This document shows, one piece after another, positions 40,474 through 52,920 of a DNA stretch of 64,000 nt (the first letter of the stretch is position 1; each line of letters begins with the position of its first letter). The notes beneath the pieces are model-generated. The model saw nothing but the letters and a program-made list of their open reading frames with translations, made no database searches and was not told where the DNA came from. The DNA is from an uncultured Bdellovibrio sp. (GTDB lineage: Bacteria > Bdellovibrionota > Bdellovibrionia > Bdellovibrionales > Bdellovibrionaceae). The position numbers and the translations under genes are program-made. The stretch is from assembly GCA_963932905.1 (NCBI GenBank), contig CAWVRN010000007.1, positions 1 to 64,000 on the forward strand, read 5' to 3'.

Positions 40474-41705
40474 GCTTTCTCCACGATAACTTTAAGGAAT
40501 TTTTTCTTGCCGGCTTTTAAAATAAATTCTTTACCTGCTTCTAGATCAATTCGGATTTTTGAATTAGACACTTTTTCACTATCGATACTTACACCGCCAC
40601 CTTCAATCAAACGAGTCGCTTCCGAATTCGTTTGCGTGATCCCAAGCTGAGTCATCAGTTGATTAAGAGCAACATCCTTAGCTGGTTTAACCGCTTTCTC
40701 TTCAATCGTGTCCGGTAGACCTTTTTGAACGAAAATGCGATTAAACTCATCTTCGGCATTTTGCGCATCACTCGCCGAATGAAAGCGCGCAACCAAAAAT
40801 TTAGCTAAATCTACTTTAACCTGACGAGGGTGTTTGTTACCGCTCTTCACGTCTTTCTTCAGCTGTTCCAATTGCGTTGGTGAAATATCAGAAAGCAATT
40901 CGTAATAACGGTACATCAATTCATCTGACACACGCATCGTTTTACCGAACATATCCTTAGGCGTATCCACAACAGAAATGTAGTTGTCTAACGATTTAGA
41001 CATTTTATTAACACCATCTAAACCTTCAAGGATGGGCATAGTTAAAATGCACTGAGGTTCTTGCTGGTATTGAGATTGTAAATCACGACCGACTAGCAAA
41101 TTAAACTTCTGATCGGTTCCACCCAGTTCCACATCTGATTTCAAAGCGACCGAATCGTAACCTTGAGTCAGGGGGTACAGCAATTCATGTACGGCAATTG
41201 GCGTGTGATTTTTCAAACGGTTCGAAAAATCATCACGTTCCAAAATGCGTGCTACTGTGTAGCGTGAAGCCAGACGAATAAAATCAATTGATGTCATCGG
41301 CGCTAGCCATTTGGAATTGTATACGATCTCGGTTTTTTCAGGATCTAAGATTTTAAAAATCTGCTTAGCATACGTCTTTGCATTCTCTTCGATTTGCTCA
41401 CGGCTCAAGATAGGGCGAGTCGTGTTCTTACCCGATGGATCGCCAATCAATGCCGTGAAATCACCAATCAAGAAATGAATGTGATGACCTAAATCTTGGA
41501 ATGTTTTTAATTTATTAATAACAACAGTATGGCCAATGTGAATATCCGGACGCGTAGGATCCGCACCAAACTTGATCAACAAAGGCTTCTTAGTTTCAAC
41601 ACTGCGTTTCAACTTCTTCAGCATGTCTTCTTTAGAAATTAAATCAACGGTACCGAAACCAATGCGTTCTAATTGTTCTTCTGGTTTTAAACCCAACAAA
41701 CTCAT
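40470..41705 (-). CDS. tyrS: Tyrosine--tRNA ligase
   Basis: [26 protein letters not shown] and C-terminal S4 domain (AGKKKF). Confidence 0.97.
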
Positions 41706-41708
41706 GGA

Positions 41709-43274
41709 CTACCTGGCCATATCAATCGAACGAGTTTCGCGTACAACTGTGACTTTAGTTGAACCCAAATGAGGCAGCTCGCGCTCTACCTTACGGGCGA
41801 TATCACGTGATAATAGAACCGCCAAGTCATCTGTTACTTTTGCACTTTCAACTAGAACGCGAATTTCACGGCCAGCCTGAATTGCAAATGTTTTAAGAAC
41901 ACCTTCAAAACTATTACCGATCGATTCAAGATCTTGTAGACGGTGAATGTAATTATCCATTTGCGGTCGACGGGCACCGGGACGGGAATGCGACAATATA
42001 TTGGCTGCATGAATGATCCAAGCTAGCACTGAGTTTGGTTTTTCATCATCATGATGAGAACGAATCGCATGACATACATCTTCGGATTCACCATATTTTT
42101 TAGCCCACTCAGCCCCAACGATAGAATGGCTGCCTTCAACTGCATGATCGATCGCTTTACCAATATCGTGCAGAAGACCCGCACGCTTCGCTAATTTAGG
42201 ATTTACGCCTAATTCAGATGCCAGCAACCCAGCTATGTAGGCCACTTCCATCGAATGATTCAATACATTCTGTGCTTGCGACATTCTGTATTTCAACGAA
42301 CCTACCAACTTTACCAATTCCGGATGAACTTGGTTTAAACCTAATTCAACCACCACTTGATCACCCGCCTCACGGATAGATTTCATAATTTCAGCTTTTT
42401 GTTTTTCAACGACTTCTTCGATACGAGCCGGATGCACGCGGCCATCTTCCATTAATTTTTCGATCGTGCGTTTTGCGATCTCACGACGAATTGGATCAAA
42501 GCCCGAAATAACGACAGCTTCCGGTGTATCATCCACGATTAAATCAACACCGCAAAGTGCTTCCAACGTGCGGATGTTACGACCTTCACGACCGATGATT
42601 TTACCTTTCATTTCGTCATTCTGAAGGGCTAGCACGCTAACCGTTCTTTCCGAAGTGTACTCGGCTGCGAATCGCGACAAGGCTGTTGCAATTGTTTTCT
42701 TTGCACGCAACTGTGATTCGCGTTGAGTTTCTTGTTCGATCTCAGAAATACGTTTAGCCGCTTCTGCTTTCGCTTCTTCTTCTAACGAAGAAATCAATTC
42801 CCGCTTAGCCTGCTCCTGTGTCATCTGTGCCACTGTTTGCAATTTATTTTTTAGATTATTTAGTTCTTCTTCCGATTTCTTGTCTTGATCGGCCAGTTTC
42901 TGTTCCTGAACTTTTAGTTTCTCTTCGCGGTCTTTTAATTGACCCATAAAACGATCATTGTCGTCTTTGCTTTTGCGACTTTGATCATCCAGTTCTTTTA
43001 ATTTTTTTTCCAGCTGCTGCTCTTTTGTGCGCATACCATTTTTTTGCTTTTGAATTTCAGCTTCTAGATTTTTGCGTGAACGAGCTTCAAAATCTTTAGA
43101 CTTTGCTTCTGAGTCTTTCTTGATTTTGTTTGCTTCATTTTTTGCTTTACTTAGAATTTTCTCAGCTTCAATACGCGCTGATTTTTTCTGAATTTCATCT
43201 TTGTATTTTTTTACAAAGAAAACGGCGGCACCGCCCACGATCAATCCGATGATGACCGAAATCACTATTTCCAT
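41709..43274 (-). CDS. rny: Ribonuclease Y
   Basis: N-terminal TM, coiled coil, KH motif GKIIGREGRN, HD motif LLHDIGK, RPGAR and VTVVRE. Confidence 0.97.
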   Translation of the reverse strand: MEIVISVIIGLIVGGAAVFFVKKYKDEIQKKSARIEAEKILSKAKNEANKIKKDSEAKSKDFEARSRKNLEAEIQKQKNGMRTKEQQLEKKLKELDDQSRKSKDDNDRFMGQLKDREEKLKVQEQKLADQDKKSEEELNNLKNKLQTVAQMTQEQAKRELISSLEEEAKAEAAKRISEIEQETQRESQLRAKKTIATALSRFAAEYTSERTVSVLALQNDEMKGKIIGREGRNIRTLEALCGVDLIVDDTPEAVVISGFDPIRREIAKRTIEKLMEDGRVHPARIEEVVEKQKAEIMKSIREAGDQVVVELGLNQVHPELVKLVGSLKYRMSQAQNVLNHSMEVAYIAGLLASELGVNPKLAKRAGLLHDIGKAIDHAVEGSHSIVGAEWAKKYGESEDVCHAIRSHHDDEKPNSVLAWIIHAANILSHSRPGARRPQMDNYIHRLQDLESIGNSFEGVLKTFAIQAGREIRVLVESAKVTDDLAVLLSRDIARKVERELPHLGSTKVTVVRETRSIDMAR

Positions 43275-43290
43275 TTCAACCCTCTATTTC

Positions 43291-43920
43291 CTAAACACTT
43301 AGTTTCCGCACATCAATGCACTTAGTTTCAGTGATAATATAATCCATTTTGATGTCCCAACTGTCTGTAGGAAGCGAAGCTTCACTTAACTGACAATCAA
43401 AACAAACTCCAACTTTTAAACCTTTAAAATTTTTCAAATAACGATCGTAGAACCCTTTACCACGACCAACACGTTCCCCACTCAAACTAAATCCAAGCCC
43501 AGGGATCAACATAAGCTGAATATCAGATGCCGGAACGACTTCGACAGACGATGGATGTGAAAATCCCAACGAAGACACGACCCATTTTTCAGCCGCGTAA
43601 TTAGCTACAGACGTAAATTCCATAACCCCATCAACAGCCGTCAGTTTAGGGAACACAAGAGAACACGACGTAGAATGATAAAACGAAGCCAGATCCACTT
43701 CGTCGGAAAGGGCATTAAACCCAGCCACACAAACCGCAGCCGCCCCTGACAAAGGAGCCATCTCAGAAATCGTCAAATTAGAAATTAAATTCTGAAGAGC
43801 CAAAACAATACGCTCTTGAGCCGCCGCCCGAAGGGTCGGCACCTGAACAAAAACCCGAGCCCGCTCTTTAAGCTCTTTACGAACCGAAGCCTTAGTAGAA
43901 AGAGAAACACCAGATATCAA
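43291..43920 (-). CDS. 5-formyltetrahydrofolate cyclo-ligase (YgfA family)
   Basis: K..VRK, IPGLGF..SGERVGRGKGFYDRYL and WDIKMDYIITE. Start uncertain; TTG 43920 is preferred. Confidence 0.9.
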   Translation of the reverse strand: MISGVSLSTKASVRKELKERARVFVQVPTLRAAAQERIVLALQNLISNLTISEMAPLSGAAAVCVAGFNALSDEVDLASFYHSTSCSLVFPKLTAVDGVMEFTSVANYAAEKWVVSSLGFSHPSSVEVVPASDIQLMLIPGLGFSLSGERVGRGKGFYDRYLKNFKGLKVGVCFDCQLSEASLPTDSWDIKMDYIITETKCIDVRKLSV

Positions 43921-43983
43921 AGAAACCCCAAAAGAAAGTTGTTCCCAAGAAAAGGGCGGCCGAAGGCACGCCAAAACATCCTA

Positions 43984-44108
43984 TGAAAGTTCTAAAGGCG
44001 GCATATGCAAGGCGGACAATGCGAAAAAGCGCGAAGGCGTGGCAGCGCCACGTCGGAGCGATTTTTCGTGTTGTCCAACGCTGTCAGATGACGGCTTTAG
44101 GACTTTCA
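43984..44108. repeat. 125-bp imperfect palindrome (structured element A) between zapA and ygfA
   Basis: Outer arms TGAAAGTTCTAAAGGCGGCAT / ATGACGGCTTTAGGACTTTCA (18/21 complementary); inner arms GGACAATGCGAAAAAGCGC / GCGATTTTTCGTGTTGTCC; apex CGTGGC-AGC-GCCACG. Confidence 0.85.
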
Positions 44109-44110
44109 CA

Positions 44111-44458
44111 CTACTTCTTGGAGTTTTCGATATCTACGGAGAGCTTCAAGACGCGTTCTTCTATTTTTTCTAGTTCGCGGTGTGCCTTACGTTTCAATAA
44201 AATCAATTCTTCGGCTAAATTAAGCGCAGTTAGAACAGCTGCGTTTTGATAAGAACCATGTTTTGTTAATGCCAGAGATTCTTCCATCTTTTTATTGATA
44301 AAGGCGACCAACTCTTGAACTGTTGCGTCATCATGATTGGTTTTAAGACGATAAGGGATGCCAGCAATCAAAAATTCATAGGCCCGCGCCTCGACAGGCC
44401 GCGCCTCTTTAGAGCTCCCTTTAGATCCTTTAACCAAATCATTTTCAGAGTGAATCAT
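44111..44458 (-). CDS. zapA: Cell division protein ZapA
   Basis: IAGIPYRLK...VQELVAFINKKM...AAVLTALNLAEEL; synteny with ygfA-rny. Confidence 0.88.
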   Translation of the reverse strand: MIHSENDLVKGSKGSSKEARPVEARAYEFLIAGIPYRLKTNHDDATVQELVAFINKKMEESLALTKHGSYQNAAVLTALNLAEELILLKRKAHRELEKIEERVLKLSVDIENSKK

Positions 44459-44528
44459 TATTCAACCTTCTTAGATATTCGAAAACTTAGAAATAATTAT
44501 ATATTCTAAATGTTTAATGTCCATCAAT

Positions 44529-45125
44529 TTATCGTTTCAAGCACAAACAAAGAACGCCTTGGTCCTTCTTGTTTTCACACTTCAGCTGAACCTTGCCACC
44601 ACCGTGGTTAAGATCGAGTTCCTCAACGGAATCATTGCTAGTTTTGTAGGACATTTCAGTTTTGTTTGGCTTCGTGTCAAGCCACAACGACTCATCCTCA
44701 AGGATCTTCACATCCAAAAGGTACTTTTGCGGAACTTCCTTAACTGGATTTTTAAATTTGTCCTTCGTGATAGGAACGATCTCGGCAACGTCATCCTTAT
44801 CTAACTTTTCCAAATAATAATCATATTGTGGTGTACCCTTAACCCACTTTTGCAAACTGATCGTCAAACGATATGATTCTGGACCTAGCTTCGCGTCTGT
44901 GTACAAAACGCGGCGGTAACGCAAAACAGATTTTACCGTCGGATGTTTTTGATCGATATCTTTTTTCAAAATATTCAAATCAACTTTGAATTCCATCTTT
45001 TCATTTTCAAGCTCGGAATAGCATTGAACAATATTTTGATAAGAAATAGATGGCAGTTTTTTACTCTTTGACTGAGCGAACACACTCGCAGATAAAGATA
45101 AAAATAGAAAACTCCACATGATCAT
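44529..45125 (-). CDS. Secreted hypothetical protein
   Basis: Signal peptide ending VFA-Q; C-terminal C..CLC. Confidence 0.75.
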   Translation of the reverse strand: MIMWSFLFLSLSASVFAQSKSKKLPSISYQNIVQCYSELENEKMEFKVDLNILKKDIDQKHPTVKSVLRYRRVLYTDAKLGPESYRLTISLQKWVKGTPQYDYYLEKLDKDDVAEIVPITKDKFKNPVKEVPQKYLLDVKILEDESLWLDTKPNKTEMSYKTSNDSVEELDLNHGGGKVQLKCENKKDQGVLCLCLKR

Positions 45126-45197
45126 CTACCCATACTGGCAGCAACGTAAAGACCTTGTCCACAAAATTATGAATGTATCATTTTGATACAAAGCCGG

Positions 45198-45212
45198 TGG
45201 TCCTATCGTTGC
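45198..45212 (+). promoter_or_regulatory. Sigma54 (-24/-12) promoter candidate
   Basis: TGGTCCTATCGTTGC (GG-N10-GC with TTGC), 14 bp before ATG 45227 and preceded by the perfect palindrome TGTATCA-TTT-TGATACA. Confidence 0.6.
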
Positions 45213-45226
45213 TCTGAAAGTTAAAT

Positions 45227-46525
45227 ATGAGAAATCTAATCTTTGTTTTATATTTTATTGGTGTTTACCAAGCCTCTGCGGAAATGAACAACCAAGACAT
45301 AAACATGTGTCGACATTTTTACGCCTCTTCTAAACTTCGCTTCCCTGTTTTTAAAATTTTTGATTCTAAACTCTACGGTGAAGTGGCTAATCAAGAACAC
45401 TTTATCACTCTAAAAGAAAAGGCCGACAAAATCGCTAATGGTGAGTTGAACTATTCTAGAAGTGAGAATTGGATGATCAGGCATGCCTATTTGATGACCG
45501 AACAAATTAGACTGTTCAAATTTTTAGCTCAAGGGAATCTTCAAAATATAGATCAAAATACAGTCTGGCGCTTTCATGCCTCCTATTCACGAATTATGGA
45601 AGCCATACCTTACCTTATCAAACAGAAGAGAAGCTTCGCCGAAATTCACTATAAACAGTTTTTTAAAATTCTAGACGATTACCGCGCCGCCATTGCGGAA
45701 ACGAATATATTTTCTAAATTTGAAGGACTAGGTTTCACTTTAGTTCCTAGAGCTAACGAGACTATTAAAGATTCTTTGTCAGCCAACGACAGAGATAAAA
45801 TTGATCTGCTAAGATTATACGTCGCTACGATCAGAATCGATAACTCACTCATGGCAGACTCCAGCATAGTAGAAAAGGCATTCTATTTTGCCGTAAGCGG
45901 TTTTAAAAAAAGCACACTATTGCCTTCGTTTTTTACTGAATTAAATTCCTTTCTTGAACACTTACATGAAGAGTATACACTTGGTCGAACAAATGTGACT
46001 AAGGTCACTCAACTTCTTGAAGATATCGACACACTCATAAAATCCGGTGACTTTCAAAAGGTTTACAAATTAAAGAAAAGCACATCTGCAATACACCAAC
46101 AAATTGCTAAATTCTATCGACTTAAAGTTCAGTTTGAAAATGCTGTCACCTATACAAAAAAATCATTTTTAGAGGCCGTTCCATCAGAAAAAGACAGCGT
46201 ATATAAACCGATCACGAATGAACTGATCGCTGACTACAACAAAGAATTTGAAGCAGGAATGCGCACACCTTCATTCTTATACAAAACAGGTGCGTCAATC
46301 AAAAAACTAGAAAAACAACTAAAAGAAAACCCAGCATTCGAGGATCCCGAAACTAACGTGGCAAACCTAAATGCGTTGCTTGCCAGATACAATTTATTAT
46401 TAAATCATTATCCAAAAAACTTTTTTACTGGATTTTTCAGTCCCTATCGCAAAGAAGAAATCAAACAGGTCATCGAAAGCCGAAAGAGTGTTGAATCGAT
46501 CCGCAGTCTACTAAAAGACAAATAA
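45227..46525 (+). CDS. Secreted helical hypothetical protein
   Basis: Signal peptide ending ASA-E; 432 aa. Confidence 0.75.
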   Translation: MRNLIFVLYFIGVYQASAEMNNQDINMCRHFYASSKLRFPVFKIFDSKLYGEVANQEHFITLKEKADKIANGELNYSRSENWMIRHAYLMTEQIRLFKFLAQGNLQNIDQNTVWRFHASYSRIMEAIPYLIKQKRSFAEIHYKQFFKILDDYRAAIAETNIFSKFEGLGFTLVPRANETIKDSLSANDRDKIDLLRLYVATIRIDNSLMADSSIVEKAFYFAVSGFKKSTLLPSFFTELNSFLEHLHEEYTLGRTNVTKVTQLLEDIDTLIKSGDFQKVYKLKKSTSAIHQQIAKFYRLKVQFENAVTYTKKSFLEAVPSEKDSVYKPITNELIADYNKEFEAGMRTPSFLYKTGASIKKLEKQLKENPAFEDPETNVANLNALLARYNLLLNHYPKNFFTGFFSPYRKEEIKQVIESRKSVESIRSLLKDK

Positions 46526-46526
46526 T

Positions 46527-47114
46527 TTATTTACATTCAGATAGGTCCCAGCACTGGGACCCTTGTTGATCTAGAACTTTGCAAAGTTGGCCTACGCCAT
46601 TGCTATGCACCCTAAAGTAACTGGTTTGATCAGCCACTTGCTTACGTGAACCATCCGCATCGGTGATAAAATATCGGCAGGTGTAGGTCCACTCATATTT
46701 TTGATCTGTGTGATCGATTTTATCTTCGCATTCAGGACTTAATGTTTTATCAATTTTATCGCCTTCAATAAATTCGCGACCCATTTTAAAATTCAATGCC
46801 TTTTCATCGGATTTGATTTCAAGCAGAGGTTGCTCTGTTAAGTCAGCCATGATTTTTGTTTTAGAAATTTTTGAAACTGCGTACCACACGCTATCTTTAG
46901 TATCACAAACAAATTGCCCAGGTAGCTTAATCGCCGGTTTTTCTTTAACTTCCTGAGTCTGCGCAGATGGTGCCGTATCCTTAGAGGCTGTCGACGTTTC
47001 TTTCTTTGTATCTTTCGGCGGCGTATGGGTTGAAATCGTTGCCGTTTCCGGTCGACCACCACAGGCCCCAATTACTAATGATAGCATCAGAACAATAAAT
47101 ATCTGCTTCATCAT
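46527..47114 (-). CDS. Putative lipoprotein
   Basis: IGAC lipobox, Thr/Lys/Pro linker and 6 further Cys; SD AAGGGGA. Confidence 0.75.
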   Translation of the reverse strand: MMKQIFIVLMLSLVIGACGGRPETATISTHTPPKDTKKETSTASKDTAPSAQTQEVKEKPAIKLPGQFVCDTKDSVWYAVSKISKTKIMADLTEQPLLEIKSDEKALNFKMGREFIEGDKIDKTLSPECEDKIDHTDQKYEWTYTCRYFITDADGSRKQVADQTSYFRVHSNGVGQLCKVLDQQGSQCWDLSECK

Positions 47115-51451: not shown

Positions 51452-52627
51452 CTAAATAATTGAGTCGACGTATTCTTGTTGTGAGAATGGTTTCAAATCG
51501 TGGATACGCTCACCTATGCCCAGTATCTTAATGGGAATCTTAAGTTCATTTGAAATACCGATGACAACCCCGCCTTTGGCCGTGCCGTCCATCTTCGTCA
51601 AAATCACACCCGTCAAATTCAACGCCTGGTGAAATTCACGCGCTTGAATCAAAGCGTTCTGGCCAGAATTCGCATCTAGGACAATCCAAATATTATGAGG
51701 TGCATCCGCACTGTTCTTAGCCATGACACGTTTCACTTTTTTAAGCTCTTCCATCAAATTCACCTGAGTGTGCAAACGCCCAGCTGTATCCACGATCACT
51801 AAATCATAACCTTGCGCTTTCGCTTTGGCGACAGCATCAAACGCAACCGCACTTGGATCGGCGACACCCTCGGGTGAAAAAATCTCAACCTGCGCGCGAT
51901 CCGTCCACACTTTCAATTGATTCTGAGCGGCCGCACGAAACGTATCTCCAGCAGCCACAAGAACACGCTTACCTTGCCCCGCCATCAACGCCGACAATTT
52001 CCCAATCGTTGTAGTTTTACCAGCACCATTCACACCCACGATCATCAAAACAGTCGGCCCTTCCGAAGCCCAGCGAATACGCTGAGCGATTTCAAGATGA
52101 TCGTGTTCAACAGAACCATTCGAAGCATGCAATATCGAAAGAATTTTCTCACGCAGAGTTTTCTTCACAGTATCCAGATTTTTTTTATCTGAAGACGACA
52201 GCGTTTCGTCCAAATGACTCATCAAAGACTGAACCGTCGTTGAGCCGATGTCCGCCGTGTACAACACTTCTTCAACATCTTCCAACGGTTGAGCGGCATT
52301 TGAAGAGAACGCATTTTTAATACGACCCCAAAAATTCTCACGAGTTTTCGATAACGCTTTTTCAACGGTGTTTGTTTCATCCCCAGGAAGAACCACTTCC
52401 CCAGAAGCAGAAACGGGAGCCAAAACTTTTTCCTTAGATGGAGTCTGAAGAGATTCAGTCAAAGAATCAGATTCACGAGCCGCAATTTGCTCAACAGCCT
52501 CAGACGTTTCAGAAGATTTATTTTTCTTAAGAGCTTTAAGAATAAACGGCGTAAAAATAGCTAAAATAATTAAAGCGACACAAAAAAATAAAATCCGAAT
52601 CGCATCCTGATGTGCTTCTGGCATCAT
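51452..52627 (-). CDS. ftsY: SRP receptor FtsY with N-terminal TM anchor
   Basis: GVNGAGKTTT, DTFRAAA, DTAGR and TKMDGTAKGG; start MMPEAH after GGAG. Confidence 0.96.
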   Translation of the reverse strand: MMPEAHQDAIRILFFCVALIILAIFTPFILKALKKNKSSETSEAVEQIAARESDSLTESLQTPSKEKVLAPVSASGEVVLPGDETNTVEKALSKTRENFWGRIKNAFSSNAAQPLEDVEEVLYTADIGSTTVQSLMSHLDETLSSSDKKNLDTVKKTLREKILSILHASNGSVEHDHLEIAQRIRWASEGPTVLMIVGVNGAGKTTTIGKLSALMAGQGKRVLVAAGDTFRAAAQNQLKVWTDRAQVEIFSPEGVADPSAVAFDAVAKAKAQGYDLVIVDTAGRLHTQVNLMEELKKVKRVMAKNSADAPHNIWIVLDANSGQNALIQAREFHQALNLTGVILTKMDGTAKGGVVIGISNELKIPIKILGIGERIHDLKPFSQQEYVDSII

Positions 52628-52799
52628 AAAAAAACTCCATTGAGATATGCCGGGAATATACACACTACTTGCTTGTTTATTAAGGAAAAAGAGAGAGTTT
52701 GCTGAAGAACTGAGGATTTCTTGGTGAAGGGCAAAAGCCCAAACCAAAGGAACCAGCGAAGCGCAGTTCCAGACAAAAAAGATCACCAGCCAACAACGA

Positions 52800-52920
52800 G
52801 CGCGCTCTATTGGCGGCGCGGACGAGGCGACTAGGAGAGCCCCGCGGAGGCGTAGTGTAAACTACGCCGCACAAGTGGGCCGACGACGGCAACGAAGGCC
52901 CCGCCGTCAATAGAGCGCGC
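52800..52920. repeat. 121-bp imperfect palindrome (structured element B) between smc and ftsY
   Basis: Outer arms GCGCGCTCTATTGGCGGCG / CGCCGTCAATAGAGCGCGC (18/19 complementary); apex GGCGTAGT-GTAA-ACTACGCC; GC-rich island in AT-rich DNA. Confidence 0.85.

Follow-up and report, generated by a model that had tools for sequence, protein, structure and literature searches.

Opposed synonymous codon bias on the two sides of palindromic repeats in the genome of an uncultured Bdellovibrio sp.

The zapA-ygfA-rny locus and its codon bias

The DNA analyzed herein, termed the window, is a stretch of 64,000 nucleotides from an uncultured Bdellovibrio sp. (positions 1 to 64,000 of the forward strand of contig CAWVRN010000007.1, assembly GCA_963932905.1). 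It corresponds to contig C7 of a genome designated G000, with a size of 4.55 Mb and a G+C content of 40.7%. Three genes are arranged on the minus strand in the order zapA (44111..44458, PF05164), a 190-nt spacer, ygfA (43291..43920, encoding 5-formyltetrahydrofolate cyclo-ligase; PF01812, E 6e-25), and rny (41709..43274, encoding RNase Y with the Pfam RNase_Y_N, KH, and HD domains), and the start of rny is located 16 nt past ygfA. The longest open reading frame (ORF) of ygfA extends to 43974, and the conserved TTG at 43920 is likely its start. Within the spacer lies hairpin A (43986..44105), assigned to the plus strand and antisense to both zapA and ygfA. The subject of this study is a switch of base composition at synonymous sites between the two sides of hairpin A, and between the two sides of palindromic repeats elsewhere in the genome. 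The zapA-ygfA-rny synteny was intact in 30/30 orthologous loci, which were fetched from 41 relatives.

Codon bias was expressed as K3, the T+G share at third codon positions, and as K4, the T+G share at fourfold-degenerate sites. A longest-ORF heuristic served to call ORFs. The site counts that were pooled are not mutually independent, and deep pairs are near saturation. A preliminary description of this locus had reported that 87 of 100 ygfA codons (43621-43920) end in T or G, compared with 5 of the last 24 sense codons of zapA, and both counts proved exact. The third positions of these ygfA codons are T 51, G 36, A 8, and C 5, and those of the zapA tail are A 10, C 9, G 4, and T 1. The A/C-ending part of zapA comprises its last ~25 codons (44114-44185). 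In the whole rny gene, which forms the downstream boundary of the skew, 267 of 521 codons (0.51) end in T or G.

The bias of ygfA is extreme at the genome level. Windows of 100 codons with at least 87 T/G endings were found in 11 of 958,975 cases (3724 ORFs); the genome maximum is the 87 of ygfA, and the next gene reaches 83. The whole-gene K3 of 0.767 ranks second among the 3724 ORFs (genome mean 0.516, standard deviation 0.054), and the K4 of 0.862 (n=123) ranks first among the 2161 leading-strand ORFs (mean 0.566, standard deviation 0.064). When amino acids and genome codon usage were taken into account, 109 T/G endings were expected and 159 of 208 were found (z=7.2). Among the enriched codons are rare ones, such as CGG and GGG. 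First codon positions are also shifted, with 0.61 vs 0.546 in distant orthologues, and Ser, Val, and Ala are commoner than in these orthologues and Gln, Lys, and Glu rarer. The composition of ygfA is shifted at all three codon positions. The zapA tail by itself is weaker, as five or fewer T/G endings in 24 codons occur in 0.53% of 24-codon windows and at 51 of 3724 gene ends.

The contrast between two neighbors was calculated as the K3 of the downstream gene's first 80 codons minus the K3 of the upstream gene's last 24, for all 955 same-strand neighboring gene pairs in G000. The zapA to ygfA contrast of 0.65 is the second of these pairs, for which the mean is ~0.02. The pooled K4 in successive 30-codon bins of ygfA was 98/105, 98/121, 96/111, 88/99, 82/109, 48/63, and 43/55, and it dropped to 28/67 in the first 30 codons of rny. 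The strong tail-to-head contrast agrees with the earlier proposal of a flip centred on hairpin A, but the skew of ygfA spans the whole ORF and ends abruptly at rny. The flip also does not behave as one unit, since its halves are separable: in the relative G001 (L006), a normal zapA tail occurs together with a skewed ygfA.

Palindromic repeats and their skewed flanks

Hairpin A belongs to a new family of dispersed structured repeats of ~120 nt, R1. Seven orthologous copies and two paralogues were aligned, and a covariance model was built from the alignment. The model scored hairpin A at 132.7 bits on the plus strand and 60.5 bits on the minus strand. Hairpin A is identified as a dispersed-repeat copy because the model finds 10 places in G000 and 0-57 copies per genome in the relatives; matches were present in 23 of the 41 relatives' genomes and included tandem copies, such as a triplet in G039:C78. 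With its 10 places in G000, R1 qualifies as a dispersed, extragenic, palindromic repeat. One of these places is a second, weaker copy on the plus strand of the window (52801..52918, 33.7 bits), just upstream of ftsY (51452-52786, minus strand, K4 0.76). Further copies were located at C3:188144-188264, C1:111393-111526, and C24:67872-68017 of the same genome. The minimum free energy (MFE) of hairpin A was -79.3 kcal/mol on the plus strand vs -69.9 kcal/mol on the minus strand, and the consensus fold energies of R1 were -42.1 vs -23.2. Compensatory changes were found at 23 of 45 pairs in the R1 alignment, together with G-U pairs on the plus strand. Conserved internal-loop motifs are present in R1, including four GGA on the plus strand.

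6S RNA (ssrS) sits between zapA and ygfA in many proteobacteria, and hairpin A resembles it as a structured, RNA-like hairpin in the zapA-ygfA spacer. The two differ in that hairpin A occurs in several copies and has its better fold on the opposite strand. 6S RNA (Rfam RF00013) was ruled out as the identity of hairpin A, as no covariance-model match was obtained and the true 6S RNA lies elsewhere. Neither hairpin A nor R1 matched Rfam, and no Rfam family was found at gathering score in the window. 6S RNA gave no hit at E≤10 in 43700-44300 and was absent at E≤0.1 from 20 orthologous loci. The canonical 6S RNA of G000 is located at C1:17627-17802 (70.1 bits), away from the zapA-ygfA spacer. The available part of a report on attack-phase small RNAs of B. 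bacteriovorus (PMC3627812) describes none at zapA/ygfA.

The preliminary description had asked whether the skew switch persists when averaged over the copies of the element, and it does. On the sense strand, T+G in the two 100-nt bins nearest the 71 other R1 copies on their 5' side was 0.435 and 0.454, respectively, and the baseline was ~0.48-0.50; on the 3' side T+G was 0.507-0.511. For R1 alone, the averaged switch is real yet small and short-ranged. Genes positioned beside R1 like ygfA had a mean K4 of 0.589±0.017 (n=39), and those with the highest K4 are housekeeping genes, namely ftsY, serS, gltX, and rpsD. R1 presence was ruled out as the driver of the ftsY K4, which was 0.77 and 0.64 with R1 upstream vs 0.73, 0.62, 0.61, and 0.66 where no copy was found.

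A stronger and graded switch was found around a second palindromic family, REP-B. Among the 955 gene pairs, the highest contrast was that of the purH pair on contig C6 (0.74), and the pair ranking next below zapA to ygfA reached 0.44. The purH and zapA-ygfA gaps are both ~130 nt with an MFE of ~-53 kcal/mol, and the purH gap holds a 133-nt hairpin of REP-B. A BLAST search with one 45-nt arm of REP-B gave 39 arm hits on ~20 loci, beside 29 gene tails and 9 heads; the palindromic sequence was read in L172. The mean contrast was 0.318±0.069 across gaps with REP-B (n=8) and 0.220±0.094 across gaps with R1 (n=6), compared with 0.017±0.004 across gaps with neither repeat (n=941). Generic hairpin stability was ruled out as the driver, as gap MFE and contrast were correlated with r=-0.11 over the 955 pairs.

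The profile of REP-B-adjacent tails and heads leaves out both index loci (zapA-ygfA and purH). In the 29 tails, K4 per 20-codon bin counted from the stop codon was 0.23 (n=248), 0.30, 0.40, 0.47, 0.52, 0.51, 0.55, and 0.58, compared with 0.53-0.56 in 448 control tails. The gradient was seen in 15 leading-strand and 14 lagging-strand genes. The 9 heads were mildly G/T-rich, with a K4 of 0.51-0.71 vs 0.52-0.56 in controls, and the 46 tails beside other strong hairpins had a small effect (K3 0.43, 0.43, and 0.48). At the three REP-B loci that were profiled, A>T and C>G give way at the repeat to T>A and G>C, and both components are similar in size. Of the 29 non-index tails, 16 have at most five T/G-ending codons among their last 24. 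Together with the purH-upstream tail, which belongs to the 120-aa ORF set, these REP-B tails make up as many as 17 of the 51 gene ends of this kind in the genome. On either strand, A/C predominates over the ~60-250 nt that precede the hairpin, and G/T over the stretch that follows. The synonymous bias is hairpin-centred, graded with distance, and present on both replication strands. Simple replication skew was rejected as the cause, being too weak genome-wide, with a K4 of 0.57 in leading-strand vs 0.50 in lagging-strand genes.

REP-B copies at C5:24755-24786 and C5:25456-25494 bracket a Y1/HUH transposase gene. This gene (C5:24792-25415, within L171, C5:24755-25494) encodes 207 aa with an HFHL motif, scores 30.2 bits against PF01797 (cut-off 23), and resembles the REP-associated tyrosine transposases (RAYT) belonging to REP (repetitive extragenic palindromic) elements; bracketing by the repeats is the hallmark of a RAYT. 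By its sequence, REP-B is a short, multi-copy palindromic extragenic repeat with a flanked RAYT, as in REP/REPIN-RAYT systems. A second RAYT-like gene of 212 aa, also with the HFHL motif, is located at C12:65708-66471 (L170, 1302-2065) and has on its flanks another inverted repeat, perfect and 25 nt long, starting GGTGCCAG. Beside both PF01797 genes, R1 gave no match above 11 bits, and the R1 model matched the REP-B hairpin weakly (16 bits). Congeners have 1-7 PF01797 hits each.

Orthologues with and without the repeats were compared at three loci. At the purH locus, K3 was taken over the first 80 head codons and the last 24 codons of the upstream tail. G000, G006, and G003 have gaps of 162-263 nt (MFE -62 to -94), with 66-71/80 T/G endings in the head and 1-2/24 in the upstream tail. 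G009, with a gap of 127 nt (MFE -27), has 59/80 and 5/24. The 25 other loci, with gaps of at most 115 nt and MFE above -22, have 36-56/80 in the head and 9-19/24 in the tail (23 with an upstream ORF). The remainder of purH is ordinary in G000, G006, and G003 (K4 0.56-0.58), and the head value of 0.82 compares with 0.57 beyond the first 80 codons. The purH gap contains REP-B in G000 (L140) and 255-263-nt inserts of the GGTGCCAGG type in G006 (L141) and G003 (L142), with the same skew. The differing repeats suggest that repeats have turned over at a fixed, already recoded site.

At the zapA-ygfA locus, K3 of ygfA was 0.63-0.84 in 8 congeners with the hairpin or a remnant of it vs 0.50-0.63 in 22 element-free loci. 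The pooled K4 in the last bin of zapA was 6/52 in L001-L006, 6/28 in L007-8, and 91/182 in the 22 element-free loci. At the third locus (contig C23), the gene has C at third positions in five repeat-bearing genomes where G001 has T. G001 also retains a 66-nt remnant of hairpin A (L006:2122-2187), with an ordinary zapA tail and a ygfA K3 of 0.79, which indicates that the two halves of the flip can decay at different speeds. Repeat-free orthologues are ordinary with the same amino acids, and therefore the skewed composition was derived together with the element. The same codon bias in element-free orthologues, named beforehand as an outcome that would count against a role of the element, was absent from ygfA, the zapA tail, the purH head, the purH-upstream tail, and the third gene. 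Together with the A/C-rich 5' flanks of R1 and the graded switch around REP-B, this ties the skew flip to hairpin elements, as the preliminary description had held.

Synonymous divergence and its interpretation

Synonymous substitutions per synonymous site (dS) increased in the order zapA, ygfA, rny in every estimable pair, with ygfA below rny in all 7 such pairs. The proportion of synonymous differences (pS) was lower in ygfA than in rny in 9/9 pairs. Against G003/G006, pS was 0.405 in ygfA and 0.135-0.167 in zapA, and all 11 and all 16 other neighbors were higher (0.45-0.74). Between L001 and L002, dS was 0.63 in ygfA vs 0.93 in rny. For zapA, dS was 0.07-0.34 vs 0.28-1.8 for rny and was low over the whole gene, indicating that something beyond the protein constrains the zapA sequence. 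The ratio of nonsynonymous to synonymous substitution rates (dN/dS) of ygfA was 0.11-0.26, as under purifying selection.

At fourfold sites of the L001-L002 pair, G-T differences were found at 13/96 sites in ygfA and 11/191 in rny. Division by 2*pi_G*pi_T yields 0.40 for ygfA and 0.37 for rny; the exchange per site pair is equal, and the two genes therefore share one neutral clock. The transition:transversion count for changes between T/G and A/C was 42:19 in ygfA and 119:65 in rny (three pairs). The fourfold divergence of ygfA between L001 and L002 was 0.354 (n=96). An added A/C to G/T mutation flux giving a K4 of 0.86 would predict ~0.50, which is ~3 standard errors above the observed value, and a fixation-type bias would predict ~0.40. 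At the purH head, divergence was 15/38 vs 73/150 in the remainder, and 13/37 vs 78/151. In the purH-upstream gene, 7/25 third positions of the tail vary vs ~21/33 in the first 100 columns of the body, and in the third gene, read by eye, ~25% vary in the tail vs at least 55% in the body. The skewed flanks change less at synonymous sites than usual, which is not hypermutation. These data call for a directional, fixation-like pressure that has the hairpins at its centre. Modelling of substitution rates from pairwise counts did not separate selection from repair bias.

As the source of this pressure, we tentatively favor selection on transcript composition around REP-type hairpins acting as Rho-type terminators or attenuators, to which we give a probability of about 0.4. 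An A/C-rich, G/U-poor gene tail would be unstructured and similar to a Rho utilization (rut) site. Together with a stable hairpin, such a tail could form a Rho-type terminator or attenuator and a protector of the 3' end. Where genes lie in tandem, the sense RNA of the following gene's G/U-rich, C-poor head would be resistant to Rho, and the antisense RNA of that head would be an ideal Rho substrate. The case of ygfA may be the most extreme because this gene starts 66 nt behind the hairpin and is under the weakest constraint of the genes at the locus. Rho is present in G000 (Rho_RNA_bind, 122.5 bits). The third positions of the last 24 codons of the purH-upstream tail, as read, are C 14, A 9, T 1, and G 1, and on their 5' side the three REP-B loci have a GC skew of -0.1 to -0.44. 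As judged from sequence, the C-rich, G-poor, putatively unstructured ~80 nt upstream of the hairpin correspond to what a Rho-dependent terminator would have. In a folding survey with 240-nt pieces, the antisense RNA of ygfA was unusually unstructured (z +2.1 to +3.4).

Several observations weigh against selection for Rho-type termination. Selection for rut sites explains only the C>G component, and the A>T skew is equal to or larger than the C>G skew at the three REP-B loci, so that the A>T component needs the extra assumption of selection for unstructured RNA. Ribosomes would cover a rut site within the tail of an ORF. The C>G enrichment of E. coli is located downstream of the stem-loop in the available text, on the side opposite to that found here. 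The G/T-rich heads are left unexplained; they are strong at only two loci and mild at the 9 others. In a convergent pair, the gene with its own intrinsic terminator keeps a weaker skewed tail (6/24), and a skewed tail despite an own terminator looks like an effect of distance, not of need. The repeat-bearing genomes at all three loci form one clade, and the contrasts are therefore independent by locus, not by lineage.

The E. coli REPs are the closest known system. In the accessible parts of two sources (Dar and Sorek 2018, PMC6061677; bioRxiv 10.64898/2026.03.23.713779), they are described as partial Rho-dependent terminators and stabilizers of mRNA 3' ends, and the REP motif itself is without C>G skew. 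The C>G enrichment is given for the sequence downstream of the stem-loop (PMC6061677), and the C-versus-G asymmetry near REPs is linked to Rho. The repeats described here resemble E. coli REPs and bacterial interspersed mosaic elements (BIME) as short palindromic extragenic repeats just past stop codons, mostly convergent or intra-operon, and RAYT-type Y1 transposases are flanked by repeats in both, here by REP-B. They differ in the strength and position of the skew. The enrichment in E. coli, as far as the sources present it, is mild, of C over G, and downstream, whereas the skew here is strong (K4 0.23 vs 0.54), affects A/T no less than G/C, is found upstream, within the coding tail, and has a G/T-rich counterpart downstream. 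Recoding of neighboring genes is not mentioned for E. coli REPs in these texts, and the word 'codon' occurs 0 times in the available text of bioRxiv 10.64898/2026.03.23.713779. In the literature searched, as far as its text was available, no description of flank recoding beside palindromic repeats was found. The role of E. coli REP/BIME as partial Rho-dependent terminators was reportedly established by Espeli et al. in 2001.

The principal competing explanation is hairpin-seeded, strand-biased DNA repair. Nicks or breaks at the extruded hairpin, made by a RAYT-type HUH enzyme, a structure-specific nuclease, or gyrase, would be followed by excision and resynthesis outward, such that on each side one strand is always corrected and lesions of the other are fixed. 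The outcome would be a miniature, origin-like keto skew, with the overall substitution rate unraised, like biased gene conversion. The polarity is strand-symmetric (5' A/C and 3' G/T on both strands) and independent of the replication strand, the A/T and G/C components are similar in size on the keto/amino axis as in replication skews, the effect decays with distance like a repair tract, and heads are affected besides tails. Three palindromic families are involved (R1, REP-B, and the GGTGCCAGG-type inserts in the G003/G006 purH gap), generic strong hairpins have a small effect, and RAYT-like genes flanked by repeats exist. In two-state arithmetic, the A/C to G/T flux is ~2.2-2.7 times that of rny and the reverse 0.5-1.05 times, which repair bias can yield. 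Against this, no nick-directed bias of this kind was found described for REPs in the available text, tails are far more affected than heads, and the genes at ftsY and beside most R1 copies are ordinary. The transition:transversion ratio is unchanged, and a deamination-based bias should favor transitions; the polarity is also unpredictable unless the excised strand is known. That repeats with HUH nickases seed asymmetric repair, leaving a keto skew over 100-600 nt on each side and up to 210 codons of ygfA, is in our view somewhat less probable than selection on transcripts. The preliminary description had gone further, proposing that the hairpin seeds local strand-asymmetric mutagenesis, for example by repeated nicking, resection, priming, or error-prone resynthesis, with a diversification footprint. 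The nicking part of this idea gains from the Y1/HUH family of RAYT-like enzymes flanked by the repeats, and the evidence does not fit the error-prone part. In favor of mutagenesis, the skew has the element at its centre, with K4 decreasing along ygfA from 0.93 to 0.75-0.78, and the protein is fast-evolving (51% identity where rny has 92%). However, the synonymous divergence of ygfA lies below that of rny and all neighbors, its G-T exchange equals that of rny, its fourfold divergence falls short of the mutational prediction, its dN/dS is low, and the skew stops in one step at the ygfA/rny junction. The skewed tails vary less than their own gene bodies, and the ftsY K4 is not tied to the element. 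No reverse transcriptase or diversity-generating retroelement is nearby; the sole PF00078 hit of the genome is on contig C30. A diversity-generating retroelement or retron-type diversifier was ruled out on these grounds, and error-prone mutagenesis is largely refuted and very improbable.

The composition could also have preceded the repeats, if these transpose into sites that are already A/C-rich on the 5' side and G/T-rich on the 3' side. Y1/HUH transposases recognize single-stranded DNA targets, according to the available text of PMC3333891 and PMC2817692, the first 100-200 nt 5' of the 71 R1 copies are A/C-rich and often non-coding low-complexity runs, and the REP-B family accounts for about one third of the strongly A/C-ending tails counted above. 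The repeat-free orthologues at three loci, with ordinary tails and heads and the same amino acids, and the different repeat families in the same skewed purH gap of sister species argue against such an insertion preference, which is improbable. Slightly less improbable, and still unlikely, is a cause specific to ygfA, such as relaxed codon selection that exposes a leading-strand and transcription-associated bias, or a translational reason. All 15 of the 15 highest-K4 genes are on the leading strand, K3 of ygfA exceeds that of rny also in 18 of 22 element-free loci, and the K3 of 0.79 in G001 occurs with a mere hairpin remnant. None of the 35 detected tRNAs has C34 in a fourfold box. ARAGORN found these 35 tRNA genes in 58 contigs, with one U34 tRNA each for Ala and Pro; as far as the assembly shows, T- or G-ending fourfold codons would all be wobble-read. 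On the other side, leading-strand genes average a K4 of only 0.566, and the purH head has the same pattern over just its 80 hairpin-proximal codons and is ordinary beyond. The Lys codons AAA and AAG keep an unshifted 10:2 ratio, and the shift extends to first codon positions; both disfavor a decoding explanation.

Four further candidates were rejected. An overlapping antisense or alternative-frame gene was ruled out, as the in-phase antisense frame of ygfA is broken differently in each relative (longest open stretch 33-142 codons in L001-L008); no other ORF of at least 50 aa was found on the ygfA strand. An extended inverted repeat between the zapA tail and the ygfA head was ruled out, since only short, out-of-register matches were present; a 461-nt minus-strand fold was unremarkable (z -1.46), and the zapA-tail codons common to deep lineages are conserved by A/C class, not by exact base. 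A horizontal-transfer relic was ruled out by the intact synteny and by a bias kept across lineages with dS >1. Sense transcription-associated mutation was excluded as a general cause because the tails are A/C-rich on their own coding strand, the opposite direction. Francino and Ochman are said to have found an excess of C to T and A to G changes on the coding strand, with transcription-coupled repair. The G/T-rich ygfA and purH heads follow the direction expected of such asymmetry, in which the repeat-adjacent tails differ.

The pattern resembles the skew at replication origins as presented in the available part of PMC2099444, with an excess of G+T in the 5' to 3' direction away from the centre on both sides, clearest at fourfold sites. 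It differs in scale, extending over 0.1-0.6 kb instead of megabases, in having many centres per genome, each a palindromic repeat, and in a local amplitude far above the genome's own leading-lagging difference in K4. A small local GC-skew reversal of ~0.16 units was present at 43900-44199. Cumulative GC skew ran from -0.06 to -7.2 across 41000-47000 with no turn of the kind that marks an origin; DnaA boxes were not searched for.

If the pattern holds, small extragenic palindromes, or the function they serve, would govern which codons are used over the last 60-80 positions of the preceding gene and sometimes over hundreds of codons of the following gene. This concerns termination and attenuation by REP elements, in which the rut-like signal may come from recoded coding sequence. 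The finding bears on the neutrality of synonymous sites, as about one third of the strongly A/C-ending tails adjoin one repeat family, and it affects codon-usage and skew analyses that count such regions as noise. The same genes with and without the repeat in congeners provide a natural experiment on selection versus repair bias. Should repair prove to be the cause, it would represent a force in bacteria like biased conversion, tied to mobile hairpins.

Other features of the locus

Upstream of zapA, a consensus scan of 43200-44700 found one promoter-like site, a sigma-70-like promoter on the minus strand (44496..44523; TGGACA, 16-nt spacer, TATAAT) with 11/12 consensus positions. Between hairpin A and ygfA, a small GC hairpin followed by a T-run was read from the minus strand (43946..43972). 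It looks like an intrinsic terminator by sequence and appears in the minus-strand folds; the consensus scan did not call it a terminator.

RNAfold analysis of the 3' flank of hairpin A in 7 relatives gave a 13-bp stem-loop with a U-rich tract on the plus strand (44116..44171), within the zapA tail. The stem holds G-U pairs and is retained in L001, L002, L004, L005, and L006 via synonymous changes. It may form the 3' end of a predicted plus-strand RNA of ~190 nt (about 43980-44172) with hairpin A inside it.

In the minimum-energy fold of the minus-strand zapA-hairpin-ygfA RNA, the end of zapA (44120-44145) pairs with the Shine-Dalgarno sequence (GGGG) and the TTG of ygfA (43905-43935). The pairing of the last zapA codons with the ygfA start region uses a common GATATC palindrome, without clear covariation. 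In this model, the pairing could couple the translation of ygfA to that of zapA.

Assembled RNA contigs from relatives were found in 4 RNA runs. ygfA was not covered by the contigs of these 4 runs at 90% likeness. The contigs cover zapA and 34-121 nt of the hairpin and are strandless, giving no expression levels. Those from the rhizosphere, wastewater, and sludge runs were 90-99% alike over zapA.

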